Shown one piece after another: positions 3,769 through 15,700 of a DNA stretch of 20,352 nucleotides. The notes beneath the pieces are model-generated. The model made no database searches. It was not told the origin of the DNA and saw only the letters and a list, made by a program, of their open reading frames with translations. Location of the stretch: the IMG/VR virus record IMGVR_UViG_2534681705_000008; one strand, given 5' to 3'. Position 1 is the first letter of the stretch. Every line of letters begins with the position of its first letter. Position numbers and translations under genes: made by a program. The DNA comes from a virus. Lineage: Duplodnaviria; Heunggongvirae; Uroviricota; Caudoviricetes.

Positions 3769-4343
3769 ACCGGGCCTCCGGTTGTATCGCCGCCTTTCAG
3801 GACGCCAGTATGCTGATGCGCATCAACCACGATCCCGTTAGAACTCATCGCTCCGCCGCCCTGGGTAACGCCACCATTGATCACCACTTCGCTGTTAATG
3901 CGCGTGCGGTCAGCCTCCAGTACAAACTCACTGGTTTTCATGGTGATGTTGTCAGCAGCCTCAATGACCATTGATTTGATGCCCCTGACATACCAGCGCC
4001 CGGTGGCGGGTTCGTATTCAAACCAGCCACCGTCAGGATGTTCTGTCACGCAGGCGTCCGCCGACGTCGACGGTGGTGCGAACTGATTCGAATAGACAGC
4101 GGGCAGCGCAAAGGCGGTTTCCAGATTGCCGCCCAGACTCAGCAGCACCACCTGCTCACCTTCCGATGGTCGCCACCATGTACGGGCATTCCCGGCACGC
4201 AGCGTCAGCCAGCTGATCCAGTTGGTTTCAAGCTCGCCCGTTTTCACCCGGCAAAGCCAGTTTTCCCTGTCCACTTCGGTGACTACCCCTGTGCGGATCA
4301 GGTTGGTGATAAGGCGCATGATTTCGGTTAATTGTGCGTTCAT
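3765..4343 (-). CDS. V: Baseplate spike/assembly protein gpV
   Basis: 192 aa; N-terminus aligns with P2 gpV; ATG at 4343 confirmed. Confidence 0.9.
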   Translation of the reverse strand: MNAQLTEIMRLITNLIRTGVVTEVDRENWLCRVKTGELETNWISWLTLRAGNARTWWRPSEGEQVVLLSLGGNLETAFALPAVYSNQFAPPSTSADACVTEHPDGGWFEYEPATGRWYVRGIKSMVIEAADNITMKTSEFVLEADRTRINSEVVINGGVTQGGGAMSSNGIVVDAHQHTGVLKGGDTTGGPV

Positions 4344-4388
4344 AGGGAAAGGTTGCCATCAGGGGAAGAAAGGCGGCAGTGCTGCAAC

Positions 4389-4408
4389 TTGTATCAGTGC
4401 TGATACAA
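4389..4408. promoter_or_regulatory. Candidate late-promoter activator (Ogr/B-type) binding site: perfect palindrome TTGTATCAG-TG-CTGATACAA containing TGT-N12-ACA
   Basis: Seen in sequence between S stop (4412) and V start (4343). P2-family late promoters are known to carry a TGT-N12-ACA dyad; a P_V promoter is expected at this position. Confidence 0.5.
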
Positions 4409-4411
4409 AGA

Positions 4412-4858
4412 TCACCCCGCCAGCCATTGCAGAATCATGTCGCGGGTCATTGCCTCAACATCATCATTTACACCCAGAAGGCGACGCTCTGCGTAACGCA
4501 CCTCCGGTCCCTTACGACTGACGCGATCTCGCAGGCCGTAATGGTGAACGCGGGCAATGCGCTGCACCTTGCCTTCAAACTGCACGCTGGCAGAGTCGGT
4601 GCTGGCGGCAGTTTTCAGGTATTTTGTGGTGCGCAGCTTTGCAAACATCTGACGTTTGATACGGCCTTTTTTACTGCGTGCTGTTACCCGTCGCGGTTCA
4701 TAGCTGCTGCCGTCAGGGTTGCGCTGCATCCTGATATTCTGCTGCTGTGTCCGGCGAAGTTCCTGCGCCAGCTGGCGCATCATGCGGCTTCTCGAGGCTG
4801 GTTCCAGATTCGCCAGCAAGGCACTCAGCCAGTCGTCCACCTTCTGCAGTTCAGCCAC
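4412..4858 (-). CDS. S: Tail completion protein gpS
   Basis: 148 aa; synteny R-S-V; the start at 4858 is a GTG, so the exact start is uncertain. Confidence 0.8.
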   Translation of the reverse strand: MAELQKVDDWLSALLANLEPASRSRMMRQLAQELRRTQQQNIRMQRNPDGSSYEPRRVTARSKKGRIKRQMFAKLRTTKYLKTAASTDSASVQFEGKVQRIARVHHYGLRDRVSRKGPEVRYAERRLLGVNDDVEAMTRDMILQWLAG

Positions 4859-5303
4859 GTTTCACCGTCCACATTTCTTCAGGTGCATCAGGTTCCGCTA
4901 TAGCTTCAACGCTCGACACACTGCCGTCAGTGCTGACCAGCACACGTTCCGTCAGTTGCAGGTTCAGGCTGATATCACAGACATCGTTGCGCAGAATATC
5001 CACCTCAAAGGTGAATAGCTTTTCCCGTAACGCCGGGTTATTGATGGCATCGGGCTGGTTATCCCTCAGCCACAGCAAAACCGGGGCCATCAGCAGATTC
5101 TGGTCGCCGCTGAAATCCTCAATCACCGCGTTCAGTGTGTAACGGTACTCCCACGACATGGAGCTGGCCCCCGTGGCAACCAGCGAACCGTTATCCACAA
5201 ACAGATGCAGTTTGTCCGGGTTATTGCGGACATAAGGCACCGCTTTATTGAGGGCGTGGCGCAGGGATTGTGGTTTGTTCACTGTTTCGCTCCTGACACG
5301 CAA
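4851..5303 (-). CDS. R: Tail completion protein gpR
   Basis: Similar to P2 gpR from ...KPQSLRHALNKAV onward; the track start at 5303 is TTG; a GTG at 5282 is an alternative start. Confidence 0.8.
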   Translation of the reverse strand: MRVRSETVNKPQSLRHALNKAVPYVRNNPDKLHLFVDNGSLVATGASSMSWEYRYTLNAVIEDFSGDQNLLMAPVLLWLRDNQPDAINNPALREKLFTFEVDILRNDVCDISLNLQLTERVLVSTDGSVSSVEAIAEPDAPEEMWTVKRG

Positions 5304-5535
5304 TAATCATGTCCACTTTGTCTGCACAGACCGCCCAGGCGGCCTCCGTTTCATCCAGCAACGCGTTCAGATCACCGTTAGTGCGCGGCGTTGCCTGATC
5401 CAGCCGACACGGCGTCACTCGCGGACAACCACTGACGGTAAGCCATACCTCCGGTGAGTGCCGGACGTTTCCGCAGCCGGATAATGTCAGCAGGCAAAGG
5501 AGTATCAGCCCAGCGGCGTAAATCCTCGTTCTCAC
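5245..5535 (-). CDS. lysC: LysC-like outer-membrane spanin (Rz1-like lipoprotein), overlapping the lysB 3' end out of frame
   Basis: 96 aa; N-terminal signal with lipobox LTLSGC; GTG start at 5535; same size and position as P2 lysC. Confidence 0.65.
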   Translation of the reverse strand: MRTRIYAAGLILLCLLTLSGCGNVRHSPEVWLTVSGCPRVTPCRLDQATPRTNGDLNALLDETEAAWAVCADKVDMIIACQERNSEQTTIPAPRPQ

Positions 5536-5806
5536 GTTTCAGTTCCTCGATCCGGTGTTGTCGTTGTCTCAGCAGCGTGCTGGTCTGTTCTGCTTCGGCA
5601 TAGAGCCGCGCCTGCTCCCGGTTATTGGTTTCAGTCAGAATGGACAGGCTGATAAGCTGGCTGTTGCTCTTTGCCAGTGCCTGGCTTTTGCTATGCAGCT
5701 CGTCTGCCTGCGTGCTGATGGTCTGGCTGGCATCAGCCAGCCGCCACGTCTGCCAGCCCAGCGCCGCCAGTAATAACGCCAGCACAACCAGCAGCAACCG
5801 GTTCAT
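5378..5806 (-). CDS. lysB: LysB-like inner-membrane spanin (Rz-like)
   Basis: 142 aa; N-terminal transmembrane segment followed by a charged, coiled-coil-like region; ATG at 5806 confirmed; ATGA overlap with the upstream gene. Confidence 0.75.
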   Translation of the reverse strand: MNRLLLVVLALLLAALGWQTWRLADASQTISTQADELHSKSQALAKSNSQLISLSILTETNNREQARLYAEAEQTSTLLRQRQHRIEELKRENEDLRRWADTPLPADIIRLRKRPALTGGMAYRQWLSASDAVSAGSGNAAH

Positions 5807-6180
5807 GCTGCTACCTGTTTCGCCATCTGATTACGGGTGATCCAGAAGGCAATAACGGTCAGTAGATAAAAGACCAGGGTAATAGCCCACCCCGTCCAGG
5901 CGAGACTTACAACAATCAGCAATCGCATCACCCAACTGATAAATACGTTTTCTTTTCGGGTAATTGTCTTCAGTAAAGATGCCCTTAACTCCTGCCAGAG
6001 CGGGCCATTCTTAATTAACGCAGCCAGTGCTACCGGAATTACCGCCCATGTCAGCAAACAGGCTACCCAAACGCCGGACGCTGCCAGTACCGGAAAAATC
6101 CCCTGCGGATACACCATTGCTGCGATTAACAGCGCCATCCATAACATCAGAAACAGTCCGCTGATTAATTTCTTTTTCAT
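5803..6180 (-). CDS. lysA: LysA-like small membrane protein (putative holin/antiholin-type lysis regulator)
   Basis: ATG at 6180 (MKKKLISGLF...) lies 1 nt after the endolysin stop; several hydrophobic helices; the longer track ORF (to 6252) would overlap the endolysin by about 70 nt. Confidence 0.65.
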   Translation of the reverse strand: MKKKLISGLFLMLWMALLIAAMVYPQGIFPVLAASGVWVACLLTWAVIPVALAALIKNGPLWQELRASLLKTITRKENVFISWVMRLLIVVSLAWTGWAITLVFYLLTVIAFWITRNQMAKQVAA

Positions 6181-6181
6181 T

Positions 6182-6694
6182 TCAGTTTGCTCCCTGTAAA
6201 CACCAGGCCATCTCCCGCGCACGGCGGTTATCCAGCCCCTGATTAAACACACCTTTTACATAAACCCAGCGCGGCAACTGTCGGCACGCATCCGCCCAGC
6301 GCCGCTGATTGAGCAATTTCACCAGCGTGGAGCTGCAGGCATTGCCCGTCCCCACGTTGAAGGCAAACGACACCGTAGCGTCATACACCTTCTGTGGTGG
6401 CAGTTGCTTCACACACCTTTCCAGTACCCGCTCCACACGCAGCACGTTGGAGATCAGCCCTTCTGCTGCCTGTCGTTCCGTGATTGTTTTGCCGGGAATG
6501 ACGCCCGATGTATTACCAATGCCGTCGGTCCAGACACCCGCGCTGCACTGATACGGCTGCAGACGACAGCCTTCGTAATCAGCAATCAGTTTCAGCCCCT
6601 CCACGGAGGTGTGAAGCTGCTGAAAACCCGGCAGCGTGGCAGCAATAGCCAGCACGGCCCCGACAAGGCAGCGTTTAACGATTGATGGATTCAT
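6182..6694 (-). CDS. Endolysin, GH24 lysozyme with an N-terminal SAR-like signal-anchor
   Basis: 170 aa; hydrophobic N-terminus (CLVGAVLAIAATLPGF) followed by a lysozyme core resembling P21-type SAR endolysins; ATG at 6694 confirmed. Confidence 0.9.
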   Translation of the reverse strand: MNPSIVKRCLVGAVLAIAATLPGFQQLHTSVEGLKLIADYEGCRLQPYQCSAGVWTDGIGNTSGVIPGKTITERQAAEGLISNVLRVERVLERCVKQLPPQKVYDATVSFAFNVGTGNACSSTLVKLLNQRRWADACRQLPRWVYVKGVFNQGLDNRRAREMAWCLQGAN

Positions 6695-6890
6695 AGTCCT
6701 CCCGCGAGATCTGCCCGTCGCGCAGAAGCTGGTAGGATTTGTGTTTGTAGTACCAGTTGATAGCCAGCATCAGTACACCAATCATCAGGCCGCCCAGCGT
6801 TGAGGCATCCTTGATGGACAAATCGCCCAGCCAGGCCAGCACGACGGCGATGCAATACGTGATAAAGGCGCTGATTCGCTCAAGCGTCAT
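6675..6890 (-). CDS. Holin (small two-TM membrane protein)
   Basis: 71 aa; two hydrophobic segments and a charged C-terminus; ATG at 6890 confirmed; position immediately upstream of the endolysin. Confidence 0.7.
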   Translation of the reverse strand: MTLERISAFITYCIAVVLAWLGDLSIKDASTLGGLMIGVLMLAINWYYKHKSYQLLRDGQISREDYESINR

Positions 6891-6893
6891 AAT

Positions 6894-7097
6894 TCAGTCC
6901 CATAGCTGGACGGTCTGCACGGTGGTGGTGGTCGGAATGTCCGGCAGCTCCACCTGCAGCCCGTGAGGTAAAAAGGGGCCGTATTCGGCAAGCCCCGGAT
7001 TTGCCTTCAGTACCTGCTCCGTGACCCCCTGCGTGCGCCCGTAATGACGCCAGCAAAGCGCGTCCACCGTGTCATACTGATGCGCACGCACTTTCAT
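6894..7097 (-). CDS. X: Tail protein X (gpX)
   Basis: 67 aa, same length and position as P2 gpX; ATG at 7097 confirmed. Confidence 0.8.
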   Translation of the reverse strand: MKVRAHQYDTVDALCWRHYGRTQGVTEQVLKANPGLAEYGPFLPHGLQVELPDIPTTTTVQTVQLWD

Positions 7098-7561
7098 CAG
7101 ATAAGCTCCACTGTGCAGTGCGGCGCATCCTGCACCCGGCTGATGGCCCAGCGGGCGTCACGCCACAAATCACCGCTTGCTTCCGCCAGTTCCTCGCCCC
7201 GCTTCACACCGGACGCCGTGGCGTCATAGTCCTGGTATCGTTCGTTGAGCATGGCGCGTGCCCAGCAGTAAACCGCGTTGAAATAGTGCTGAATGCGCTC
7301 ACTTTTGCCGTCCAGCTGTTCCGCCGGAACTTCTGCCAGCGAGGCATACCCCAGCATCTGCTGGCGTCTGCGAAACTCATACAGCTCTGCGTTGACCTCC
7401 GAAATTGCCGACAGCGCAACCTGCTTTAAACGCGGCTGCGTCACCGTGCCGTCAGTGCGCATCACGCTGCGAAACTCCGACAGGTCCACATCAGGCCAGA
7501 ACGGCGTATTCCTGATGATTTCCGCCTGTTCCGGTGCCTGTTCTGGCGCAACAAACTTCAT
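7097..7561 (-). CDS. L: Head completion/stabilisation protein gpL
   Basis: The ATG at 7561 has a good SD (AGGAGA) and gives 154 aa; the track ORF extends to a GTG at 7624; similar to P2 gpL. Confidence 0.85.
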   Translation of the reverse strand: MKFVAPEQAPEQAEIIRNTPFWPDVDLSEFRSVMRTDGTVTQPRLKQVALSAISEVNAELYEFRRRQQMLGYASLAEVPAEQLDGKSERIQHYFNAVYCWARAMLNERYQDYDATASGVKRGEELAEASGDLWRDARWAISRVQDAPHCTVELI

Positions 7562-7656
7562 GCTGCTTTCTCCTGAAATAGAGGGCGGTGGACGGGGTTT
7601 TGATGTGGCAGTGCCTTTCGCCACCCCGTGCCGCCCGTGCGCGGGGGCACGTTCTG

Positions 7657-8307
7657 TCAGCGGCTGTCATTGCGCAGTCTGCGCTCCAGCTGCTGTTTGT
7701 CTTTTTTCACGCCACAGCGAGGATCGAGCTGTAACGCATGGTTGAGATGATTAAGGGCGGAAGCCGGGTTGCTTTCACTCAGGACAGCGCCAATCGCTTT
7801 ATGCAGACGCGCCCGTGACTGGTCCGGCATATCCAGACCGTCTGCCAGCTCCAGCGTCTGCAGCAACAGATCGGCATCAAAGCCGGTGGCGGCAAGCATT
7901 GCGCTCTGCGCCGCGTCTGCCATTTCCTCTGCCAGCACGGTCTGCACGTTGCGGTTACCCAGCGGCATCACCCAGCCATGACGCAGGGCATGACGCCCGA
8001 TCTCCAGCGCCCCTGCATAATCTCCGGCATCAATGCGCCACAGCATCACGTACATCAGCACGTCATCCTGTTGAGCGCCTCCGGCAGCCAGAACGCCCTC
8101 CGCCCAGGCGGCATATTTCGGCAGCAGCTCCACCTTGATTTCCGCTTTTTTGACCGTGGACTGAACGCCCTTGAGACGGCGGCGGTCTTCCGCCAGTTGC
8201 AGCAGCATCAGGTCATAGCCCGACGCGTGGCGAACACTGCCACCCTCGCGAGCGGCCTGTTCAGCCTGAACGCGCAGGCGATGCTGCCGTGCGGGACTCA
8301 GGCTCAT
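7657..8307 (-). CDS. M: Terminase endonuclease (small) subunit gpM
   Basis: 216 aa; ATG at 8307 confirmed; synteny O-N-M-L. Confidence 0.85.
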   Translation of the reverse strand: MSLSPARQHRLRVQAEQAAREGGSVRHASGYDLMLLQLAEDRRRLKGVQSTVKKAEIKVELLPKYAAWAEGVLAAGGAQQDDVLMYVMLWRIDAGDYAGALEIGRHALRHGWVMPLGNRNVQTVLAEEMADAAQSAMLAATGFDADLLLQTLELADGLDMPDQSRARLHKAIGAVLSESNPASALNHLNHALQLDPRCGVKKDKQQLERRLRNDSR

Positions 8308-8310
8308 GAA

Positions 8311-9369
8311 TTACGCTCCGGTTTCTGCTGCGGTGGCGCTGAAGTCACCAATCTGGATGTTTTCCACCAGTGCAGCGCAGCGATAGTCCTCAACCACATA
8401 GGCTTCGTTAACGGATTCAAAATTTTCAATCCGGTCACGTTTCGGGTTGTCGATAACTGAACGGCGGCGGGTATCTTCCTGCCAGTAGATGGACAGGTTA
8501 TCCAGACGGGTGATCAGCAGCGCATTCGGCGGGAAGAACGGCGCACGCACCGCCTGCAGACCACCCATGCGTTTCTGACTGATGATCATATCGGCAGCCA
8601 GTTTTTCACTGTTTTCCTGCTCTTTGTTGACCAGCGGGAAATACTTGTCAGACAGCAGTTCACGACCGCAAATCACCACCAGATCGTCATCGTCCTGGTA
8701 GACCACGTCGATAAGCTCATTGACGGCATCCATCACTACGGCGTCCAGGTTGGCATATTCGCCACCTTTCCCGACTTTCACCGCGCCCGGTGTGGTTTCA
8801 CCGCCCGTGGTGGTGCTGCCCATGACGTGATCCGGTGCATCCTCACGGATTTTCTGCAGCCAGCCTTTGTTCACATCCTGCAGCAGCGGGTTTTCGCTAC
8901 GGTTGGAGGTTTTCGCACGCTTCACGCCGTTAAAGCCGATCATGATGCGGTCCAGTGCCTGACGTTTCACGATGGCGTTACGGATACGCACCTGGAAATC
9001 CTGAAACTTCGCCCACAGGTCCAGCTTCGCGTAGGTCAGCACCGTGTCAAAGTTGGTCTGTTCGCATTTGTATTCCACATCGACCATCAGCGTCGGATCG
9101 ACAGGTTCTCGCTCTTTCGCGGTGGTATCAGTGGTTCCGGCAATGGTGCTGCCAACACCCAGCCCCAGCAACTGACCAGACTGCTCAGTCACTGGCGTGA
9201 CGTTAATCAGCGTCAGGAAAGAGGCGGACTGCTGGATCTGGTCTTCCAGCGTCTGCTGCACGGACGGCTCTACGGTGAACTTGCTGGACAGTTCTTCAAC
9301 TGCCACACCGTTCAGACGCGCCAGCTGCTGCAGGTAAGCGTTAAAAGCAAAGCGGGTATTCTTCTTCAT
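8311..9369 (-). CDS. N: Major capsid protein gpN
   Basis: 352 aa; strong resemblance along its length to the P2 major capsid protein; ATG at 9369 confirmed. Confidence 0.95.
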   Translation of the reverse strand: MKKNTRFAFNAYLQQLARLNGVAVEELSSKFTVEPSVQQTLEDQIQQSASFLTLINVTPVTEQSGQLLGLGVGSTIAGTTDTTAKEREPVDPTLMVDVEYKCEQTNFDTVLTYAKLDLWAKFQDFQVRIRNAIVKRQALDRIMIGFNGVKRAKTSNRSENPLLQDVNKGWLQKIREDAPDHVMGSTTTGGETTPGAVKVGKGGEYANLDAVVMDAVNELIDVVYQDDDDLVVICGRELLSDKYFPLVNKEQENSEKLAADMIISQKRMGGLQAVRAPFFPPNALLITRLDNLSIYWQEDTRRRSVIDNPKRDRIENFESVNEAYVVEDYRCAALVENIQIGDFSATAAETGA

Positions 9370-9385
9370 CGGGTTTTGTGCTCCA

Positions 9386-10219
9386 TCAGCAATTGGTCAG
9401 AGTGTCAGCGGGGGCGTTACCGCCTGTTGCACGCTGGCGGTAGTCCTGGCGGCTGTCTTCATGACTCAGCTTGTCCACCAGTTCGTTAAAGGCGGTCTGC
9501 TGTGCCTGCAGGGCAGTCTCCAGCTCAGACAGACGTTCTTCCTGCTCAGACAGGGATTTTTCGGTGCGTGCGCTCAGGTTTTGCTGCTCAGTGGCGACCA
9601 GCTCCACGGCCTTATGCACATCAGAGAACCGGGCATCGTCGGACTGCTCTTTTTTGGTAAACAGCGCCGTGACACGGGCAAACAGGGACGGTTTGTCCTC
9701 CTGGATTTCTTCCAGTTCGATCACCGTTTCCTCTGCGGCGGTAAAGAGATTGGCGGGATTCTGCTTGCGGTTTGCCAGCGGGTTATGGGCTGCACTGGCG
9801 CTGAATGTCAGCATTTCCGTACCCAAACTGGCAGGGTCATCAGTGGCAGCCAGGCCGACCAGGTAGGCTTTGCCCGTATCAGCGAACTTCGGGCTGACTT
9901 CCATAGAGGTGAATAATTTCTGGCCTTTTTTCACCAATTCCACCAGGGACTCCGTTGGCTCAACGTCGGCATACAGCGCCATCTTGCCTGCCAGCGGGCC
10001 TTCCGTGATTTCTTCAGCAAACAGCGCCGTCACCTTGCCGTAACGGTTAAAGGTGCTGTCCGGGAGATAAGACTTGATGTGCTCAAGGTTAATCAGCGCG
10101 GTATACACCGCCGGGTTGTAGCTGGCTGCCATCTGTTCCAGCCATTCACGCTGGATTTCGCGTCCGTCGGTGGTGGCACCTTCCACCCCGATGCGAAAAC
10201 GCTTTGCTTTCACTGTCAT
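9386..10219 (-). CDS. O: Capsid scaffolding protein gpO
   Basis: 277 aa; ATG at 10219 confirmed; divergent from P, as in P2. Confidence 0.9.
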   Translation of the reverse strand: MTVKAKRFRIGVEGATTDGREIQREWLEQMAASYNPAVYTALINLEHIKSYLPDSTFNRYGKVTALFAEEITEGPLAGKMALYADVEPTESLVELVKKGQKLFTSMEVSPKFADTGKAYLVGLAATDDPASLGTEMLTFSASAAHNPLANRKQNPANLFTAAEETVIELEEIQEDKPSLFARVTALFTKKEQSDDARFSDVHKAVELVATEQQNLSARTEKSLSEQEERLSELETALQAQQTAFNELVDKLSHEDSRQDYRQRATGGNAPADTLTNC

Positions 10220-10295
10220 GAGCCGTGCTCCGTTAGAAATAACTTACTGGAGCCTTATGGTTGCGGTGATGGGGGCAGTGAAACAATGCGCGGTA

Positions 10296-10317
10296 TTTGT
10301 ACCGACAACCACACAAA
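10296..10317. promoter_or_regulatory. Candidate late-promoter activator site (TTTGT-N12-ACAAA) in the O/P divergent intergenic region
   Basis: TGT at 10298..10300 and ACA at 10313..10315 with short symmetric flanks; the O and P late promoters are expected in this 142-bp gap. Confidence 0.4.
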
Positions 10318-10361
10318 CCGCAGGCGGGGAAAGCCTTCATTCAAGGCTGTAGGTTTGTGCC

Positions 10362-12128
10362 ATGAACACCACACTGACACCCGCAGATCTCGATCCCCGT
10401 CGGCAGGCCATGCTGCTGTACTTTCAGGGATACCGCGTAGCCCGCATTGCTGAAATGCTGGGCGAGAAAGTTGCAACCGTTCACAGCTGGAAGAAACGCG
10501 ACAAGTGGGGTGACTATGGGCCGCTGGATCAGATGCAGCTCACCACCGCCGCACGTTACTGCCAGCTCATTATGAAGGAGCACAAAGAAGGGAAAGATTT
10601 CAAAGAAATTGACCTGCTGGCGCGCCAGTCGGAGCGCCACGCGCGGATCGGCAAGTTTAACAATGGCGGCAACGAAGCCGACTTAAACCCTAACGTCGCC
10701 AACCGCAACAAAGGCCCGCGCCGTCAGCCGGAAAAGAATGTTTTCACCGATGAACAGATAGAGAAACTGGAAGAAATCTTCCATTCCTCCATGTTCAACT
10801 ACCAGCGCCACTGGTGGGAAGCCGGAAAAACCAACCGCATCCGCAACCTGCTGAAGTCACGCCAGATCGGCGCGACCTTTTACTTTGCCCGTGAAGCCCT
10901 GATTGACGCCCTGCTTACCGGACGTAACCAGATTTTCCTTTCTGCCAGTAAGGCACAGGCTCACGTCTTTAAGCAGTACATCATCGACTTCGCCAAAGAA
11001 GTCGAGGTGGAGCTGAAAGGCGATCCGATGGTGCTTCCTAACGGGGCCACGCTTTACTTCCTCGGCACCAATGCCCGCACGGCGCAGAGTTACCACGGCA
11101 ACCTGTATCTGGATGAATATTTCTGGATACCGAAATTCCAGGAGTTGCGCAAAGTGGCTTCCGGTATGGCTATTCACAAGAAATGGCGACAAACCTATTT
11201 TTCCACGCCATCCAGCCTGACCCACAGTGCTTATCCGTTCTGGTCCGGTGCGCTGTTCAACCGTGGACGCAACAAAGCTGACAAGGTGGACATCGACCTG
11301 TCCCACAGCAATCTGGCCCCCGGCCTACTGTGCGCAGACGGGCAATACCGCCAGATAGTCACCGTGGAAGATGCGGTGCGCGGCGGCTGTAACCTGTTCG
11401 ACCTCGACCAGCTGCGCATGGAGTACAGCCCGGACGAATACCAGAACCTGCTGATGTGCGAGTTCGTGGACGATCTCGCGTCCGTGTTCCCGCTCAGCGA
11501 ACTGCAGGCGTGCATGGTGGACAGCTGGGAAGTCTGGACCGACTTTCATGCACTGGCCCTGCGCCCGTTTGGCTGGCGCGAAGTGTGGATCGGTTATGAC
11601 CCGGCAAAAGGTACGCAGAACGGCGACAGTGCCGGATGCGTGGTGGTGGCTCCGCCAGCCGTGCCGGGTGGTAAGTTCCGCATTCTTGAGCGTCACCAGT
11701 GGCGCGGGATGGACTTCCGCGCCCAGGCTGACGCCATCAAAAAACTGACCGAACAGTATAACGTGACCTATATCGGTATCGACTCGACCGGCGTCGGTCA
11801 CGGGGTTTACGAGAACGTGAAAGCGTTTTTTCCTGCCGTCAGGGAGTTTGTCTATAACCCCAACGTTAAAAACGCCCTGGTACTCAAGGCCTACGACATT
11901 ATCAGCCACCGCCGTCTGGAGTTTGACGCCGGGCACACCGACATTGCGCAGTCATTTATGGCAATCCGTCGCGCTACCACTGCCAGTGGCAACCGCCCGA
12001 CCTATGAAGCCAGCCGCAGCGAAGAAGCCAGCCATGCCGATCTGGCCTGGGCAACAATGCACGCACTGTTTAACGAACCGCTGCAGGGCGAGTCCGCCAA
12101 TACCAGCAATATTGTGGAGATTTTTTGA
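10362..12128 (+). CDS. P: Terminase ATPase (large) subunit gpP
   Basis: 588 aa; P2 gpP-like; ATG at 10362; stop overlaps the Q start (TGATG). Confidence 0.95.
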   Translation: MNTTLTPADLDPRRQAMLLYFQGYRVARIAEMLGEKVATVHSWKKRDKWGDYGPLDQMQLTTAARYCQLIMKEHKEGKDFKEIDLLARQSERHARIGKFNNGGNEADLNPNVANRNKGPRRQPEKNVFTDEQIEKLEEIFHSSMFNYQRHWWEAGKTNRIRNLLKSRQIGATFYFAREALIDALLTGRNQIFLSASKAQAHVFKQYIIDFAKEVEVELKGDPMVLPNGATLYFLGTNARTAQSYHGNLYLDEYFWIPKFQELRKVASGMAIHKKWRQTYFSTPSSLTHSAYPFWSGALFNRGRNKADKVDIDLSHSNLAPGLLCADGQYRQIVTVEDAVRGGCNLFDLDQLRMEYSPDEYQNLLMCEFVDDLASVFPLSELQACMVDSWEVWTDFHALALRPFGWREVWIGYDPAKGTQNGDSAGCVVVAPPAVPGGKFRILERHQWRGMDFRAQADAIKKLTEQYNVTYIGIDSTGVGHGVYENVKAFFPAVREFVYNPNVKNALVLKAYDIISHRRLEFDAGHTDIAQSFMAIRRATTASGNRPTYEASRSEEASHADLAWATMHALFNEPLQGESANTSNIVEIF

Positions 12129-13165
12129 TGGGAAAGAGTAAGAAGAACCGCGCTGCGTCGACGAAACAGATCCAGCATAAAAGCCAGACTTCAGCCGAAG
12201 CATTCAGCTTCGGTGATCCCGTTCCTGTTCTGGACCGCCGCGAACTGCTGGACTATGTGGAATGCGTACAGATGGATCGTTGGTACGAGCCGCCTGTGAG
12301 TTTCGACGGACTGGCGCGAACCTTCCGCGCCGCCGTGCATCACAGCTCACCGATTGCAGTGAAGTGCAACATTCTGACCAGCACCTACATCCCTCACCCG
12401 CTGCTCAGCCAGCAGGCTTTTTCGCGTTTTGTACAGGACTATCTGGTTTTTGGTAACGCCTACCTGGAGAAACGCACGAACCGCTTCGGTGAAGTTATCG
12501 CCCTTGAGCCTGCACTGGCAAAATACACCCGACGCGGGTTAGACCTTGATACCTACTGGTTTGTGCAATACGGCATGACTACACAGCCGTATCAGTTCAC
12601 GAAAGGCAACATTTTTCATCTGATGGAACCGGACATCAACCAGGAGATCTACGGCCTGCCTGGTTATCTTTCTGCCATTCCGTCAGCCCTGCTCAACGAG
12701 TCCGCCACGCTGTTCCGTCGAAAGTATTACATTAACGGCAGTCATGCAGGCTTCATCATGTACATGACCGACGCCGCGCAGAACCAGGAGGATGTAAACA
12801 ACCTCCGTAACGCGATGAAAAGCGCCAAAGGACCAGGTAACTTCCGCAATCTGTTTATGTACTCGCCTAACGGCAAAAAGGACGGACTTCAGATCATCCC
12901 ATTGTCAGAAGTCGCGGCGAAGGATGAGTTTCTGAATATCAAAAATGTCAGCCGCGATGACATGATGGCAGCGCACCGTGTGCCACCGCAAATGATGGGG
13001 ATTATGCCGAATAATGTTGGGGGGTTTGGGGATGTGGAGAAGGCAAGCCGTGTATTCGTCCGAAATGAGCTAATGCCACTACAAAAGCGATTACAGGAGA
13101 TGAATGATTGGCTTGGCAAGGAGGCGATACGGTTTGATACCTACTCGCTAGATATAGCCCCATAA
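12128..13165 (+). CDS. Q: Portal vertex protein gpQ
   Basis: The track start at 12125 is TTG; the ATG at 12128 gives 345 aa (MGKSKKNRA...); P2 gpQ-like. Confidence 0.95.
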   Translation: MGKSKKNRAASTKQIQHKSQTSAEAFSFGDPVPVLDRRELLDYVECVQMDRWYEPPVSFDGLARTFRAAVHHSSPIAVKCNILTSTYIPHPLLSQQAFSRFVQDYLVFGNAYLEKRTNRFGEVIALEPALAKYTRRGLDLDTYWFVQYGMTTQPYQFTKGNIFHLMEPDINQEIYGLPGYLSAIPSALLNESATLFRRKYYINGSHAGFIMYMTDAAQNQEDVNNLRNAMKSAKGPGNFRNLFMYSPNGKKDGLQIIPLSEVAAKDEFLNIKNVSRDDMMAAHRVPPQMMGIMPNNVGGFGDVEKASRVFVRNELMPLQKRLQEMNDWLGKEAIRFDTYSLDIAP

Positions 13166-13169
13166 TAAG

Positions 13170-13193
13170 AAAAGCCACCGTTTGGTGGCTTTT
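13170..13193. terminator. Bidirectional intrinsic terminator hairpin between convergent Q and the HipS-HIRAN gene
   Basis: Perfect 10-bp inverted repeat AAAAGCCACC-gttt-GGTGGCTTTT, with A-run and T-run flanks usable on either strand. Confidence 0.6.
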
Positions 13194-13199
13194 CTTCAT

Positions 13200-13940
13200 T
13201 TACTCAATAGGTTCAAACTCATCTTGAGGAATCAGCGTCGATTGACAGGCTTGGCTTAGTACCCCTGATAATTTACATAATAACCGATAGTTATGAGGAG
13301 CATCATCGCTAATCTTTTCGACCGTTAAAGTGATTGATTTTGGATCATCCAATAACATCTTCTTGATGTCATTACTTAAATACCTAGGGCAGTAACCAAC
13401 GATTTCAGCTGGTTTATCTGCACGAACGACAACAGCATCCCCATCGTATTCATTTTGAAGATCCAAGCAAAGACGCAAAATTTGCCCCGGTTTCAATTCA
13501 GATACACGAGCATTAGCTAAGCTATTCAAGTAACCAAGTCCATGTAAGAAGAAAAAATGCTCAAAGTTACCATCAGAATCAAAATCAATTTTTTTGAAAA
13601 TCTGCAGCTGATCAGTGCTTCGTAAGCCTCCCGAGCGAGCAAGAATATCGATAGGATTTACCTTATCTTCTTCAAATCCAAGCCATTTAATGAAACTCGG
13701 ATACTCTGGACGTCTCGGTGATAAAAGGCGATTTTTAAAAAGAGGAAACAATTCTTCCGATACATAAGTTTCACGAACATCACTCATGCCGCTAAACTTT
13801 GTAAATTTAGAAGATTTAAGAGCACCTTTGGTATACCTGAAAACATACCCCGATTTGCGCTCTTGCAAGTTACCAACAACATGCCAGTCTCTGGTATCTG
13901 GTGCCTGCCATGCGACGTAAACGGAGTTTGTATTAGTCAT
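13200..13940 (-). CDS. HipS-like (HipA N-subdomain-like) domain fused to a C-terminal HIRAN domain; putative antitoxin/sensor partner of the adjacent kinase
   Basis: 246 aa. N-terminal ~115 aa resemble the HipA N-terminal/HipS fold (VGNLQERKSGYVFRY..., ELFPLFKNRLLSP..., IDILARSGG). C-terminal ~90 aa carry HIRAN-like motifs (LHGLGYLNS; LQNEYDGDAVVV resembling NPYDxNAIxV; IVGYCPRYLSNDIKKML). ATG at 13940 overlaps the kinase stop (ATGA). Confidence 0.6.
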   Translation of the reverse strand: MTNTNSVYVAWQAPDTRDWHVVGNLQERKSGYVFRYTKGALKSSKFTKFSGMSDVRETYVSEELFPLFKNRLLSPRRPEYPSFIKWLGFEEDKVNPIDILARSGGLRSTDQLQIFKKIDFDSDGNFEHFFFLHGLGYLNSLANARVSELKPGQILRLCLDLQNEYDGDAVVVRADKPAEIVGYCPRYLSNDIKKMLLDDPKSITLTVEKISDDAPHNYRLLCKLSGVLSQACQSTLIPQDEFEPIE

Positions 13941-14851
13941 TCTAGTAACCTTCTGCGATTTTCCATTACCATTAACGTTGCAAATCTACGTGCACTGTCG
14001 GATATACACGATGAAGGCACTTGGTTAAACACATCTGTAATGGAATCTTCTGTTAAAACGCTCAACTTACCTAACCAATGGTCGCGAGCGGCAACTCTCC
14101 CTTCAACTGCATGTTGAAATGCTTCAACAGTCAGCAAGGGCTTTTTATCAGTTTTTGCTTTGAATAGCTCAGAGCGAGCTTTTCTTACAAAACATGGGAT
14201 TTGTCGATTTTTATCTTTAGTATTAAGCCGTTCGTTACGCTCATCATCTAACATCTCCCTTCCTAAACTAGCGGCATGATCGTATGTTGGACACAAAAAC
14301 TGCTCACCAGTTTCATTGTTAAGCATGATTGCCCAATTTTCATGGTGGCGATCTTGATTACTCACAAGTGCATCGAGCATCAAATATCCACAAAATACAT
14401 CTGCTGCATTTAGCCCGGTTAGATCATATACACTCGGAGGAGGCTTGATAGATTCCCTATCTAAACAACCCAAGACCCTTGTGACAGTGTGTTCTCTGAC
14501 CCTTACCGGCTTTTCCCCGGCTTGTAAAGGCCCAGGATAATCGAATGTCGAACTGTGAAGCACTTCATTTCCCATTACCATCCGGAAACCAGATGGAATG
14601 ATATTCTGAGTCACCACACCGAATCGACCATTGTATCGCGCCAAATCATAGCTAGCATGTGGAATGTTAAGCAAATGACATAACTCAGCAGCACACTTTT
14701 CAGACCAATGCTCGCCAGTACCTGGCCTAGAGTACTTAAACAACTGCAAATTTACAGTGTCATCGGAGAAATAGAACCAAAACTTCTCTTTGGTTCCTAA
14801 CTGTTCAAGATCGTTAGCTACGGGGCTAAGCTCTACCAATTGGTATGGCAT
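13937..14851 (-). CDS. HipT/HipA-like Ser/Thr kinase core (HipA_C superfamily), lacking the HipA N-terminal subdomain
   Basis: 304 aa. Gly-rich loop GTKEKF (res 19-24, resembling the HipA/HipT GxQxK loop), catalytic motif SNQDRHHENW (res 164-173, resembling GxxDxHxKN), and Mg-binding-type YD in CPTYDHAASLG (res 190-191). ATG at 14851 confirmed. Confidence 0.7.
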   Translation of the reverse strand: MPYQLVELSPVANDLEQLGTKEKFWFYFSDDTVNLQLFKYSRPGTGEHWSEKCAAELCHLLNIPHASYDLARYNGRFGVVTQNIIPSGFRMVMGNEVLHSSTFDYPGPLQAGEKPVRVREHTVTRVLGCLDRESIKPPPSVYDLTGLNAADVFCGYLMLDALVSNQDRHHENWAIMLNNETGEQFLCPTYDHAASLGREMLDDERNERLNTKDKNRQIPCFVRKARSELFKAKTDKKPLLTVEAFQHAVEGRVAARDHWLGKLSVLTEDSITDVFNQVPSSCISDSARRFATLMVMENRRRLLE

Positions 14852-14944
14852 CTGACATCCCTGTTTAGCGGATTATGAATAAGTTAGGTTCCATTTTATC
14901 CAAACATTGTCAAATACCCTAAGATTTATTAGATGATAGAGCGA

Positions 14945-14964
14945 TACTGTATGTATGTCCAGCA
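14945..14964. promoter_or_regulatory. LexA-box-like sequence (TACTGTATGTATGTCCAGCA; CTG-N10-CAG spacing retained) about 95 bp upstream of the kinase operon
   Basis: About 16/20 match to the E. coli SOS-box consensus TACTGTATATATATACAGTA, with CTG and CAG correctly spaced; right half-site is CCAG rather than ACAG. Confidence 0.3.
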
Positions 14965-15003
14965 ATCAAATCAATATATAACTCTTATATGGCTTAACGC
15001 GCG

Positions 15004-15022
15004 CTCGTATCCCCGCCACGCC
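15004..15022 (-). other. Candidate cos (cohesive-end) site: GGCGTGGCGGGGA... on the minus strand
   Basis: The 13-mer GGCGTGGCGGGGA matches the start of the P2/186 19-nt cohesive end as I recall it (P2 GGCGAGGCGGGGAAAGCAC); the location between the A/tum side and Q is where cos is expected. Confidence 0.5.
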
Positions 15023-15065
15023 TGCCCGCTTTATGTAGTGGTTTTCATGCACCTGCATGATCTAC

Positions 15066-15093
15066 GCAAAAGCCCGCCAGTTCTGGCGGGCCT
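15066..15093 (-). terminator. Intrinsic terminator of the tum/DinI-like operon
   Basis: GC-rich 9-bp stem GCCCGCCAG-tt-CTGGCGGGC, followed on the minus strand by TTTT. Confidence 0.55.
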
Positions 15094-15226
15094 TAGCAAA
15101 AACGATCCTCAAACGATCATGCGATCTCATGCGGCATAGACATGCACTACAGAGCTAACGCCTCGCAAGGGCTCGTTGTTCAACCTTGCTGACGCCAGAA
15201 GCAAGTTCAGACGCCAGCAACGTTTC

Positions 15227-15460
15227 TTAATGCAGCCAGCTGTCGTCTTCCCACACCTTCTGCATAATTTTCATCACTTGTTTTCTTTCTTCGTCCAGTT
15301 GCAGTCCGGTTAGTTCCACACCGTTAGAGCTACCTTTGCGAATGCGAATTACCGTTTTGGGATACAGGGGGCGCAGATTGCGGTAAAGCTCGGATTCAAG
15401 GGCGTCCAGGGTAGACTGGCTAATCTTCTGCTCTTTATCGATCATTATTTCAATGCGCAT
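15227..15460 (-). CDS. DinI-family protein (SOS-inducible; 186 Tum C-terminal-domain-like)
   Basis: 77 aa from the ATG at 15460 (MRIEIMIDKEQ...KVWEDDSWLH), similar to E. coli DinI; SD GAGGTG upstream; the track ORF is extended to 15532. Confidence 0.8.
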   Translation of the reverse strand: MRIEIMIDKEQKISQSTLDALESELYRNLRPLYPKTVIRIRKGSSNGVELTGLQLDEERKQVMKIMQKVWEDDSWLH

Positions 15461-15470
15461 AAAAGTCACC

Positions 15471-15659
15471 TCAGCTGATGACATCCATTGAGCGGTTGTA
15501 TTCGTGGGTTCTGATTTTTGCCATGAGTTCATCAGTCAATTCAGAAACCCACTGCAGAGCCAGCCCCTTCTCTTCATCACTACACTCACTAGCCGCTACA
15601 AGCTTAAGAAAAAAATCAATGCGCTGGAGCTTCAAAGACTCCAAAAAATAGTCCTGCAT
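15471..15659 (-). CDS. Small protein, first gene of the SOS operon (possible Tum-like antirepressor N-terminal module)
   Basis: 62 aa from the ATG at 15659 with GGAGG upstream; the longer track ORF (to 15761) would run through the LexA box and promoter and is unlikely. Confidence 0.45.
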   Translation of the reverse strand: MQDYFLESLKLQRIDFFLKLVAASECSDEEKGLALQWVSELTDELMAKIRTHEYNRSMDVIS

Positions 15660-15700
15660 CTTTCCTCCTATGACACCACACGCAACGCTGTATGCATAAC

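Follow-up and report, generated by a model that had tools for sequence, protein, structure and literature searches.

An AT-rich hipIN cargo cassette with a candidate LexA box beside cos in a P2-family prophage of Escherichia coli

The window analysed here is a stretch of 20,352 nucleotides (IMG/VR record IMGVR_UViG_2534681705_000008). It is a Fels-2/186-like P2-family prophage of E. coli, near-identical (97-98%) to that of E. coli strain 410. The features that bear on our argument are, by position in the window:

12125..13165, plus strand: portal gene, P2 gpQ homologue (open reading frame; RefSeq 'phage portal protein' in the strain 410 prophage)
13167..13196, no strand assigned: bidirectional intrinsic terminator, 13-bp perfect stem and 4-nt loop, common to the convergent genes Q and hipN
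[quoted passage not shown]
13937..14851, minus strand: hipI, putative toxin/effector of 304 aa, a short HipA-fold Ser/Thr kinase (WP_001146828)
14933..14961, minus strand: predicted sigma-70 promoter of hipIN (consensus scan, 10/12 matches)
14945..14964, no strand assigned: candidate LexA box TACTGTATGTATGTCCAGCA, 16/20 against the E. coli consensus, overlapping the -35 element and spacer of the hipIN promoter
14998..15145, minus strand: conserved cos block, kept in about 1,280 E. coli genomes, 500465-1 and Fels-2
15066..15097, minus strand: intrinsic terminator (inverted repeat; fold dG -24.8, z -5.0)
15227..15460, minus strand: DinI-like gene, Tum-type of 186-like phages (Pfam DinI 1.3e-22; phrog_189 1.5e-29; RefSeq 'DinI-like family protein')
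15701..15720, no strand assigned: second candidate LexA box CACTGTTTATATTTACAGTA, 17/20, in the backbone upstream of a 62-aa ORF (15471-15659) and the DinI-like operon
15813..18236, minus strand: replication endonuclease gpA (open reading frame; RefSeq 'replication endonuclease'; Pfam Phage_GPA on homologues)

A cargo slot between the portal gene and cos

The two cargo genes (13200-14851) lie between portal gene Q (12125-13165) and cos (15022..15004), at the left end of the packaged genome, with gpA (15813-18236) beyond cos. This is the position of the cos-proximal gpA-gpQ defence hotspot defined in P2 (Rousset 2022; PMC9122126), whose far boundary is gpA. The portal gene forms the conserved left flank, with homology to other P2-like prophages stopping at 13124-13155, and the DinI-like gene, noted in Fels-2 as similar to TumB of PSP3, forms the right one. 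Just ahead of cos, the terminator at 15066..15097 closes the early minus-strand transcription unit of gpA and the DinI-like gene.

Cos was located by a looser motif together with alignment to the cos sites of P2, 186 and Fels-2; a search with the P2 19-mer itself, tolerating up to 3 mismatches, gave no match in the window. A regular expression and alignment to the P2 cos junction place the 19-nt cohesive-end sequence GGCGTGGCGGGGATACGAG at 15022..15004 on the minus strand. The identical cos 25-mer is present in Fels-2, and the P2 and 186 records annotate cos as GGCGAGGCGGGGAAAGCAC and GGCGTGGCGGGGAAAGCAT.

On the portal side the cargo ends at what the first-pass annotation had called a perfect terminator hairpin. 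The hairpin is real: its 13-bp stem at 13167-13196 folds with a dG of -20.4 kcal/mol on the plus strand and -21.0 on the minus strand (z -7.4 and -6.2), none of 200 shuffled sequences folds equally well, and U-runs flank it on both sides. A consensus terminator scanner gave no match here, and folding confirmed the hairpin. P2 and 186 carry their tQ/tW terminators at the equivalent position. An Rfam match of the hairpin to BSnc120 was sub-threshold (36 bits against a gathering score of 114) and was judged spurious.

The flanks (terminase P, Q, cos, the DinI-like gene and gpA) occur in about 1,300 (1,313 matches) of 5,426 complete E. coli genomes, the hipIN cargo in only about 21 of the 5,426. 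Elsewhere the slot holds retron St85/Ec67, TIR, SIR2, AIPR, NotI restriction-modification, S8 peptidase with AAA ATPase, DUF262, KAP NTPase, SieB, RelA/SpoT with ParA and others, dozens of alternatives altogether. In alignments with phage 500465-1 and Fels-2, homology is lost at 13125-13156 and returns at 14998; comparison with relatives thus sets the variable segment at about 13125-13156 to 14997.

Like the tin/old locus of P2, this one lies between genes A and Q beside cos and carries AT-rich, self-contained, variable cargo. In P2, however, tin and old occupy the right genome end, where they are bounded by orf91 and cos; here the cargo occupies the left end, bounded by cos and Q. Across cos, the slot from 15145 to the DinI-like gene is empty in this prophage, and Fels-2 fills both. 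There are two separate slots for cargo, one on either side of the cos block, and this prophage uses the portal-side one, unlike P2; this two-slot arrangement goes slightly beyond the published catalogues.

The hipIN gene pair

Sequence and model evidence identify the cargo as a hipIN module, in which HipI, a short kinase of HipA fold, is followed by HipN, a HipS-like domain joined to a HIRAN domain. The hipI stop codon overlaps the hipN start (ATGA; 4-nt overlap, 13937-13940). Positions 13166-15226 of the window are 100% identical to DNA annotated with WP_001146828 and WP_000185756. HipN is encoded directly downstream of the kinase in 79 of 80 loci, the one exception ending at a contig edge, and the pairing spans Proteobacteria, Cyanobacteria, Acidobacteria and Clostridia.

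For both proteins, searches against PDB sequences were weak, and fold searches were therefore needed. Single-sequence searches gave no significant match for HipI or HipN, the HipI family profile found CtkA only (2.7e-4), and the HipN profile found a weak bacterial HIRAN match only (0.24). HipI matches Pfam HipA_C at 3.6e-4, below the gathering threshold, but all of its homologues match that model (48 of 48, best 1.3e-8), and HipI matches PADLOC PDC-M03A at 2.1e-122 over residues 2-304. Its AF2 model (pLDDT 84) resembles CtkA (Foldseek 1e-9, TM 0.66-0.74), HipA (5e-6) and HipT (9e-4), with the HipA/HipT/CtkA fold match spanning the whole protein. HipI is without HipA N-subdomain 1 and begins at the Gly-rich loop. 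Invariant motifs among the 48 homologues are L18-G-T-K-E-K-F-W25, K39, D167-R-H-H-E-N172 and Y190-D191, and the catalytic loop aligns with N-F-D-R-H-N-G-N-W of CtkA. K39, the D-x-H-x-x-N motif and Asp191 probably correspond to the ATP-binding, catalytic and Mg-binding residues of HipA kinases.

HipN matches Pfam HIRAN at 1e-13, a domain present in 45 of 45 homologues, and PADLOC PDC-M03B at 6.8e-93 over residues 1-244. Taken singly, HipN gives a weak HipS-like signal at the sequence level, with Couple_hipA at 0.014 and short of the gathering threshold; 29 of the 45 homologues match that model, the best at 7e-4. In Foldseek searches the AF2 model (pLDDT 89) matches the HIRAN domains of HLTF and lp_0118 (about 5e-5 to 6e-5) and also HipS of HipBST (7ab3_E, 3e-3, TMt 0.71). 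HIRAN is a fold that binds DNA 3' ends and is known from DNA-damage and fork-remodelling proteins; in the HIRAN domain of HLTF, the Asp corresponding to the conserved motif Asp contacts the DNA 3'-OH. The invariant residues in the HIRAN part of HipN are N163, D166, A169, R173, G182, P185 and R186. HipN thus shares with HLTF/Rad5 the fold (Foldseek 6e-5, TMt 0.63) and the N-x-Y-D...A motif, kept as N163, D166 and A169. Unlike HLTF/Rad5, it is a bacterial stand-alone fusion to a domain of the kinase-inhibitor type, without a helicase or ubiquitin-ligase module.

The hipIN family was described by Gerdes, Baerentsen and Brodersen (2021), who proposed that HIRAN senses phage DNA ends and that the system acts by abortive infection (PMC8262856). 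The pair found here agrees with their description in its 304-aa kinase (range there 279-321), N-terminal Gly-rich loop and downstream HipS-like-HIRAN protein (PMC8262856), and it also has the kinase core motifs and the kinase-first bicistronic order. Their study is purely phylogenetic and has nothing on LexA, SOS, promoters or the P2 hotspot (PMC8262856).

Among related systems, the module resembles HipBST of E. coli O127 and Legionella HipS-HipT in being a split HipA, with N-subdomain 1 supplied in trans by a HipS-type protein that serves as antitoxin. The N-domain of HipN matches HipS structures (7ab3_E, 7vkb_B) and HipI matches HipT structures (8ezr_B, 7wcf), at very low sequence similarity (10-21% in the structural alignments). 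HipBST itself is tricistronic with a free-standing HipS of about 100 aa, and we rejected that assignment: hipIN has two genes, no HipB, the kinase gene first and the HipS-like domain fused to HIRAN. Canonical HipBA, with an upstream HipB HTH protein and a HipA of about 440 aa, was likewise set aside, HipI being 304 aa long and starting at the Gly-rich loop; no HTH gene was found among the ORFs and Pfam matches of 13166-15226. HipAD/DS-6, identified by DefensePredictor, is an experimentally validated anti-phage system whose defence is abolished by mutation of a catalytic residue (PMC13092281). Like hipIN, it has two genes including a HipA-family kinase, a family that can thus act as immune effector, but its partner is a DUF3037/DUF1829 protein rather than HipS-HIRAN (PMC13092281).

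The cassette occurs in P2-like prophages of Klebsiella, Serratia and Pantoea, in a P4-like satellite, in lambdoid and E217-like prophages, and at bare chromosomal sites in Proteus (beside gyrB) and V. cholerae (among housekeeping genes). Deposited phage genomes and plasmids yielded no copy at identities above 40%; more distant homologues lie in Vibrio phage-like elements, one Clostridioides phage, and actinobacterial and Nostoc plasmids. Both component HMMs of the PADLOC candidate PDC-M03 match the adjacent genes, PHROGs covers both proteins under 'unknown function', and NCBIfam has no model for either. Table S5 of Rousset 2022 includes WP_001146828 and WP_000185756, and its tested-systems table has no HIRAN entry (PMC9122126). 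The hipIN/PDC-M03 family and these exact proteins are therefore already in published catalogues, as a candidate anti-phage system. A literature search for experiments on hipIN, PDC-M03, HIRAN-kinase systems or a connection to LexA found none, which is not proof of their absence.

LexA boxes and possible roles of the cassette

The region upstream of hipIN (14852-14997) was expected from the first-pass annotation to hold the operon's own promoter. It contains one predicted sigma-70-like site, with a -35 element TGGACA (14961..14956), a 17-nt spacer and a -10 element TATCAT (14938..14933), overlapped by a conserved candidate LexA box. The promoter match is not significant by itself (2 sites in the consensus scan against 6.2 expected from shuffles); it falls within the cargo-specific segment, and a TAnnnT-like -10 element lies 6-8 nt past the box in most cassette copies. 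A search of 14852-14997 for inverted repeats and operators returned none other than the LexA box.

We scored LexA boxes, which are 20-bp palindromes of the CTGT-N8-ACAG type, against the E. coli consensus TACTGTATATATATACAGTA (PMC3009722). Only two sites in the 20-kb window reach at least 16/20, and none does in 500 shuffles. The first, in the cargo, recurs in 13 of 13 Enterobacterales-type cassettes from five kinds of context, 79-110 nt ahead of hipI; these copies share ancestry and are not independent observations. It is absent from P2-like prophages with other cargo. The second, at 15701-15720, occurs in every P2-like relative examined, regardless of cargo. Outside this group the cargo box fades. 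Nineteen further gammaproteobacterial loci showed no such box ahead of hipI; most are outside Enterobacterales, and a Providencia copy (57% identity, Enterobacterales) and an Enterobacteriaceae MAG copy (43%) are among them. None of 33 cyanobacterial loci matched a cyanobacterial LexA motif, RGTACNNNDGTWCB, which is a weak negative. SOS control is thus not a trait of the whole family. Within Enterobacterales, the hipIN cassette seems to be SOS-switched through a LexA box that travels with it, a new detail.

Coliphage 186 has a LexA-controlled tum anti-repressor operon (p95/Tum), and tisB is an SOS-controlled toxin gene. The window shares with tum a promoter overlapped by a LexA box within a P2-family prophage, and the backbone version here is the one at 15701-15720. 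Unlike it, the cargo box sits before a kinase/HIRAN pair and not an anti-repressor, and it moves into non-P2 contexts.

The explanation we consider probable is that of a LexA-controlled hipIN moron in the gpA-gpQ hotspot that encodes a lysogen-protecting kinase/HIRAN system. In the resting lysogen, LexA would keep the operon low until derepression by DNA damage or by an infection producing RecA-activating ssDNA. [quoted passage not shown] The kinase might then phosphorylate an essential part of the translation machinery, an aminoacyl-tRNA synthetase if the analogy holds, and the resulting growth arrest would abort the infection or leave a dormant cell. The gain to the prophage would be protection of its lysogen, as with tin and old in P2. 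As toxin and antitoxin would be co-induced, induction alone need not activate the kinase. We suggest, tentatively and at somewhat less than even confidence, that hipIN in Enterobacterales is a two-key switch not previously described, with LexA as the transcriptional key and DNA 3'-end sensing by HIRAN as the post-translational one. SOS-dependent transcription may be too slow against fast lytic phages.

A role in persistence is a less likely reading, though the two roles are not mutually exclusive. Here hipIN would be an SOS-linked toxin-antitoxin module, not primarily anti-phage, in which HIRAN reads DNA breaks or stalled forks, HipI, induced after DNA damage, makes a fraction of the cells dormant, and the prophage gains through host survival or addiction. 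Its models are LexA-controlled TisB and classical HipA. The LexA box conserved with the cassette fits this, as do the HLTF-like fold of HipN, given where HIRAN is otherwise known from, the standing of HipA-family kinases as classical persistence toxins, and the copies at chromosomal sites with no mobile-element genes nearby (Proteus gyrB, V. cholerae). Yet the cassette prefers phage and satellite slots where anti-phage cargo accumulates, PADLOC classes PDC-M03 as a defence candidate, and most family members outside Enterobacterales are without the box.

We regard it as improbable that the cassette instead serves the prophage's own lytic programme, co-induced by SOS with the Tum/DinI-like operon and acting by host translation shutdown or by a block of co-resident prophages or superinfecting phages (inter-phage competition), rather than guarding the resting lysogen. 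Two same-strand LexA boxes within 760 bp, serving the DinI/Tum-like operon and hipIN respectively, would fire together on SOS; the cassette adjoins cos at one end of the packaged genome and is also found in early or nin-type regions of lambdoid prophages. Such a role sits poorly with a LexA-boxed copy at a non-phage chromosomal site in Proteus, with the box-less copies, and with the rarity of the cassette, carried by just 21 of some 1,300 related prophages in E. coli, by which it is dispensable for the lytic cycle. In addition, rolling-circle replication by gpA makes 3'-OH ends, and the system could risk targeting its own phage.

We think it similarly doubtful that the 14945-14964 palindrome is the operator of a regulator other than LexA, possibly HipI-HipN itself, or simply a conserved promoter element. 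With no HipB-type HTH repressor in hipIN, some other autoregulation is conceivable; the 13 copies were inherited with the cassette, and the window's own copy has CTGG instead of CTGT in one arm. Against this, the copies in Pantoea, Yersinia and S. marcescens score 16-18/20 and are near-identical to the E. coli dinD (AACTGTATATAAATACAGTT) and dinI (ACCTGTATAAATAACCAGTA) boxes. The box holds 1.44 bits per position, versus 0.24 and 0.48 in its flanks; its CTG-N10-CAG frame is retained while interior and flanks drift, and it is arranged like a LexA operator lying across a promoter.

Composition and origin of the cassette

The operon had been described by eye as AT-richer than its flanks, and calculation bears this out. 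Its GC content (13200-14851) is 0.413 (41.3%), versus 0.556 (55.6%) for 1-13165 and 0.528 (52.8%) for gpA (15813-18236). Windows of 1652 nt outside 13000-15300 have a mean GC of 0.551 (sd 0.030, minimum 0.466), which places the operon about 4.6 sd lower, and the sliding profile reaches the lowest point of the entire window at 13331. Codon usage differs just as strongly. GC3 is 0.33 in 13200-13940 and 0.37 in 13937-14851, against 0.52-0.74 in the structural genes and 0.57 in gpA; synonymous codon usage separates cargo from core genes with a summed chi2 of 325 (df 41, p ~7e-46). CTG serves for 3 of 61 Leu codons in the cargo versus 304 of 471 in the core, and the leave-one-out codon log-likelihood z-scores of the two cargo genes are -2.9 and -4.0.

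The low-GC trough exceeds the operon, with 0.464 in 14852-15226 and 0.434 in 15227-15761. As the latter is conserved phage backbone adjoining the operon, composition alone cannot delimit the acquired segment. The discontinuity that the first-pass annotation took as the mark of horizontal acquisition is thus insufficient as GC evidence alone, and acquisition itself is supported. Nor does GC point to a donor: we dropped that question, because the cassette, at 34-45% GC in six different hosts, has a higher AT content than each of the hosts compared, Proteus included (34% against 37-41%).

Collectively, comparison with related prophages, which hold unrelated cargo in the same slot, supports the reading of a self-contained swapped cassette. 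Segment 13166-14997 is best described as a mobile cargo cassette, or 'moron', that is exchanged as a block with its own predicted promoter/operator, a translationally coupled gene pair and its own terminator, as judged from these elements, its deviating composition and its presence or absence among relatives. That the operon is instead an old resident of the phage lineage, AT-rich through function or selection, finds some encouragement in the AT-rich backbone next door (43.4% GC) and in defence-type genes being AT-rich wherever located, but is highly improbable and refuted in practice by the flank and cargo survey (21 of about 1,300 flank-bearing E. coli genomes, so that close relatives of this prophage do not all have the cassette, and a diversity of alternative cargo that speaks against deletion from a cassette-bearing ancestor), the sharp homology breaks at both ends and the occurrence of the cassette in unrelated elements. 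Since the locus is the published P2 gpA-gpQ hotspot, the exchange interpretation is correct but already known; AT-rich cargo swapping in the cos-adjacent slot of the P2 family is a textbook case, and this is one more well-delimited example.

What goes slightly beyond the catalogues is a LexA box that moves with the cassette through P2-like, lambdoid and E217-like prophages, a P4-like satellite and a chromosomal site. The travelling box predicts SOS induction of hipIN, which is cheap to test, and cautions, in practice, that hipIN may appear inactive when screened in unstressed cells. If the two-key model is true, hipIN would be an SOS-gated HipA-family weapon against phages or between prophages, and standard plasmid screens in unstressed lexA+ cells could have missed it for that reason. 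Should the kinase/HIRAN pair prove to sense DNA ends, bacterial immunity would be tied to a fork-remodelling domain of eukaryotic type.

Composition and anatomy of the hipIN locus

The first-pass annotation had judged by eye that the hipIN operon is markedly AT-richer than its GC-rich flanks, and the computed values bear this out: 13200-14851 is 41.3% GC, compared with 55.6% for 1-13165 and 52.8% for the replication endonuclease gene gpA (15813-18236). In a sliding-window profile, GC drops to a trough of 38-45% at ~13,000-15,000, against 53-62% elsewhere in the window, and the global minimum falls within the operon; all 1652-nt windows outside the cargo region average 55.1% (sd 3.0, minimum 46.6). 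Codon usage, the other property for which a departure from the flanks had been proposed, also differs strongly. GC3 is 33% and 37% in the two cargo genes versus 52-74% in structural genes, synonymous codon usage separates cargo from core (summed chi2 325, df 41, p ~7e-46), and CTG accounts for 3/61 leucine codons in the cargo versus 304/471 in core genes. By leave-one-out codon likelihood, the two cargo genes fit worst of all (z -2.9 and -4.0). The AT-rich zone reaches 15761, however, and the acquired piece cannot be defined from composition alone because this includes conserved backbone (DinI-like region, 43.4% GC). As the cassette exceeds its surroundings in AT content in every context compared (34-45% GC), GC content marks it as cargo without identifying a donor. 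A second low-GC stretch, 1-750 (44.8%), takes in the tail-fibre gene's 3' end, which encodes the C terminus, and the sequence downstream; exchangeable modules for receptor binding or chaperones typically show such a pattern.

Features of the window discussed in the text
378-1919, - strand: tail-fibre gene (Phage_tail_fib and Collar domains)
10362-12128, + strand: ORF, terminase P
12125-13165, + strand: ORF, portal Q
13200-13940, - strand: hipN, 246 aa, downstream cargo gene, 4-nt overlap with hipI (PDC-M03B, 7e-93)
13937-14851, - strand: hipI, 304 aa, upstream cargo gene (PADLOC PDC-M03A, 2e-122)
15227-15460, - strand: DinI-like gene, 77 aa (RefSeq call)
15471-15659, - strand: small ORF, 62 aa (RefSeq call)
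18185-19015, - strand: 276-aa ORF (phrog_887, 'queuine tRNA-ribosyltransferase', moron category, E 2e-96)
19012-19620, - strand: Dam-type (D12 class) methylase ORF, GTG start

The two cargo genes, the small ORF, the DinI-like gene and gpA all lie on the - strand. The perfect terminator hairpin said to bound the operon is real: a 13-bp perfect stem at 13167-13196 folds at ~-20 kcal/mol on both strands (z -7.4 and -6.2) and has a U-run on either side. The portal and cargo genes, which converge here, share it as a bidirectional terminator. An Rfam match to the Brucella sRNA BSnc120 (13112-13214, + strand), at 36 bits well under the gathering score of 114, sits over the portal gene end and this hairpin and probably reflects the hairpin alone.

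DNA 100% identical to 13166-15226 is present in E. coli strains MB7671, HUM3355 and 410. RefSeq annotates the identical locus with P2-family capsid, GPO scaffold, terminase and portal on the structural side, a 'HIRAN domain-containing protein' (WP_000185756) and a 'HipA domain-containing protein' (WP_001146828) for the two cargo genes, and DinI-like, replication endonuclease and Dam methylase genes on the far side. Mechanically called ORFs at 15227-15532 (101 aa) and 15471-15761 (96 aa) are over-extended versions that overlap each other. The closest deposited phages, Wadgaonvirus 500465-1, vB_EcoM-813R9 and Fels-2, are all Peduoviridae.

The P2 and 186 records give the cohesive end as GGCGAGGCGGGGAAAGCAC and GGCGTGGCGGGGAAAGCAT. 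The - strand of the window carries the corresponding cos 19-mer, GGCGTGGCGGGGATACGAG, at 15022..15004; the surrounding sequence can be aligned with the P2 cos junction, and Fels-2 is identical over 25 nt beginning at this 19-mer. This position places the cargo between cos and Q, whereas P2 carries tin and old between orf91 and cos. Comparison with 500465-1 and Fels-2 delimits a conserved 148-bp cos block (14998-15145) with a separate cargo slot on each side. The window occupies the portal-side slot, and the slot facing the DinI-like gene is empty (15146-15226); in Fels-2 both are filled, and in P2 tin and old fill solely the side away from the portal.

Exchange and mobility of the cassette

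The operon had also been read as a self-contained cassette swapped into the phage. Searching 5,426 complete E. coli genomes with the stretch from P to A gave matches in 1,313, just 20-21 of which carry the cargo, and alignments to Fels-2 and to 500465-1, whose cargo is TIR, locate break points at both ends (13125-13156 and 14998). These observations support that reading and establish that the segment, a self-contained cassette by its terminator and predicted promoter, is exchanged among homologous prophages. In the proposed survey for alternative cargo, genomes sampled down through the match ranking hold many unrelated cargoes in the same interval: retrons St85 (including E. coli B and BL21) and Ec67; TIR, SIR2, SEFIR, AIPR and NotI restriction-modification; S8 peptidase with AAA ATPase, DUF262, KAP/P-loop NTPases, HEPN and DUF4145; and STAS-like, SieB, RelA/SpoT with ParA, macro-domain proteins and IS elements. 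Klebsiella and Salmonella phages also carry variable cargo here. The site is the published P2 gpA-gpQ cos-proximal hotspot, for which 1,650 gene arrangements were described in E. coli (Rousset et al., 2022; PMC9122126) and which was re-described in a 2026 NAR study.

The cassette itself shuttles among unrelated mobile elements. Homologues of 57-90% identity occur in Enterobacterales, Vibrionales, Alteromonadales and others. In Klebsiella, Serratia quinivorans and Pantoea, P2-like prophages hold it in the identical Q-cos slot. Other copies reside in an E. coli P4-like satellite island that also encodes AlpA and a DUF3987 primase, in Enterobacter and S. marcescens prophages of lambdoid type, within the tail module of a Yersinia prophage resembling E217, and as bare two-gene insertions in the Proteus chromosome adjoining gyrB and in the V. 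cholerae chromosome. Copies of 64-81% identity were delimited at L007 (8001-9663), L101, L102 and L103 (4001 to ~5670) and L017 (5001-6652), loci that comprise the P4-like satellite, E217-like, lambdoid and gyrB-neighbor contexts.

Two more genes lie at the right-hand end of the window. A stretch of ~980 bp (18111-19090) is missing from the otherwise 97% identical prophage of strain 410 and may be a second cargo insertion. The 276-aa ORF within it matches phrog_887 strongly, though just over positions 5-311 of 509, and nothing in Pfam or NCBIfam; the insertion is perhaps related to 7-deazaguanine DNA modification. The adjacent Dam-type methylase aligns only from residue ~85 of its homologues onward (Pfam profile positions 97-253 of 253), and beyond ~19614 the sequence upstream of it is unrelated to that of relatives. 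It appears either to have lost its N terminus or to be mosaic.

HipI, HipN and the predicted LexA operator

HipI matches Pfam HipA_C weakly (3.6e-4, below gathering), but all 48 of its aligned homologues match this family (best 1.3e-8), and a HipI family profile finds the HipA-like kinase CtkA at 2.7e-4. The AF2 model (pLDDT 84, pTM 0.85) resembles CtkA (1e-9, TM 0.66-0.74), E. coli and Shewanella HipA (5e-6 onward) and Legionella HipT (9e-4), establishing a kinase core with the HipA/HipT fold. The invariant residues include an N-terminal Gly-rich loop (G19-T-K-E-K23), K39, D167-R-H-H-E-N172 and D191; the catalytic core of HipI is intact, and HipA N-subdomain 1 is lacking.

In HipN, Pfam detects HIRAN (1e-13) and, weakly, the HipA N-terminal domain Couple_hipA (0.014); among 45 homologues, HIRAN is found in 45 and Couple_hipA in 29. 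The AF2 model (pLDDT 89) matches the HIRAN domains of HLTF and lp_0118 (~5e-5) and, separately, HipS of E. coli HipBST (7ab3_E, 3e-3, TMt 0.71) as well as Legionella HipS, so that the partner is a HipS-like protein joined to HIRAN. Among 80 loci, the hipN gene directly follows the kinase gene in 79, and the lone exception is cut by a contig end. These loci span Proteobacteria, Cyanobacteria, Acidobacteria, Planctomycetota and Clostridia, and the gene pairing is obligate. The organization is exactly that of hipIN, defined as a short HipI kinase plus HipN (Gerdes et al., 2021; PMC8262856), which the cassette matches in every feature tested. Canonical HipBA and HipBST were rejected as assignments: HipB is absent, the gene order starts with the kinase, and HIRAN and the HipS-like domain form a single protein.

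Comparing hipI upstream regions, we found a CTG-N10-CAG palindrome. In the window it reads TACTGTATGTATGTCCAGCA (14945-14964) and agrees at 16 of 20 positions with TACTGTATATATATACAGTA, the consensus for E. coli LexA (PMC3009722, which also gives bona fide boxes). The sole sigma-70-like site in the cargo-specific upstream region, TGGACA-17-TATCAT (14961..14933), overlaps the palindrome at its -35 hexamer and spacer; together, these predicted elements favor the earlier proposal that the operon has its own promoter region. No LexA-like site of that score arose in 500 composition-preserving shuffles. The box lies 79-110 nt 5' of the hipI start in 13/13 Enterobacterales-type cassettes, covering all five kinds of context, although these copies share ancestry, so that the box has been conserved while the background diverged and does not count as 13 separate occurrences. 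Scores reach 18/20, as in Pantoea TGCTGTATATAAATACAGTA and Yersinia TACTGTATATAAATACAGTC, and the copies at L007, L101, L102, L103 and L017 all carry it. Anchored on the box, information content is 1.44 bits/position versus 0.24 upstream and 0.48 downstream. P2-like prophages with different cargo have the backbone LexA box only. The box was not found in 19 more distant gammaproteobacterial hipI loci, nor was a putative cyanobacterial LexA motif in any of 33 cyanobacterial loci. Collectively, these comparisons indicate that a conserved, putative LexA-type operator at the promoter belongs integrally to the cassette in Enterobacterales. Another conserved element, GTTTGGaTAAAATgG (14891-14904, - strand), lies in the predicted hipIN 5' UTR and is kept in the closest cassette copies, which are from E. 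coli, Klebsiella and Pectobacterium and include loci L015, L020 and L021; it may act within the UTR or serve as a second -10 element of a promoter.

The window has just one further site scoring at least 16/20: the backbone box CACTGTTTATATTTACAGTA (15701-15720, 17/20), 5' of the 62-aa ORF and the DinI-like gene (- strand) and contained in the over-extended 96-aa ORF. It is conserved in every P2-like relative examined and occupies the position at which 186-type phages have their LexA-controlled tum promoter. As a strong box is conserved at this operon, the prophage is probably SOS-inducible like coliphage 186 (Tum anti-repressor), unlike P2.

Proposed function

Gerdes et al. (2021; PMC8262856) proposed that HIRAN senses phage DNA ends, activating the kinase and aborting infection. 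In our model, LexA would repress hipIN in the resting lysogen, and SOS would lift this repression. [quoted passage not shown] We infer a defense role from context, namely the hotspot location, PADLOC candidate status, residence in cargo slots of phages and satellites, and the example set by HipAD/DS-6, a validated HipA-family anti-phage system (PMC13092281). That hipIN instead serves as an SOS-linked persistence or addiction module, a reading that overlaps partly with defense, seems unlikely. A role during induction of the prophage itself or in competition between prophages, which again overlaps partly with the defense model, we consider somewhat less likely still.

Both the P2 cos-adjacent defense hotspot and the cargo family (hipIN/PDC-M03) are already published, and these exact proteins are catalogued at this locus: WP_001146828 and WP_000185756 are among the P2 loci in Table S5 of Rousset et al. 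(2022; PMC9122126). Table S6 of that study lists a 'HIRAN-kinase' system from a Vibrio prophage hotspot, and its tested-systems table has no HIRAN entry. No link between LexA and hipIN or HIRAN appears in Gerdes et al. (2021), Rousset et al. (2022), the 2026 NAR paper or a literature search. Our analysis adds the exact anatomy of the locus (portal side of cos, boundaries and terminator), the range of contexts in which the cassette travels and, in the LexA box, a testable and apparently unreported prediction of how hipIN may be regulated.
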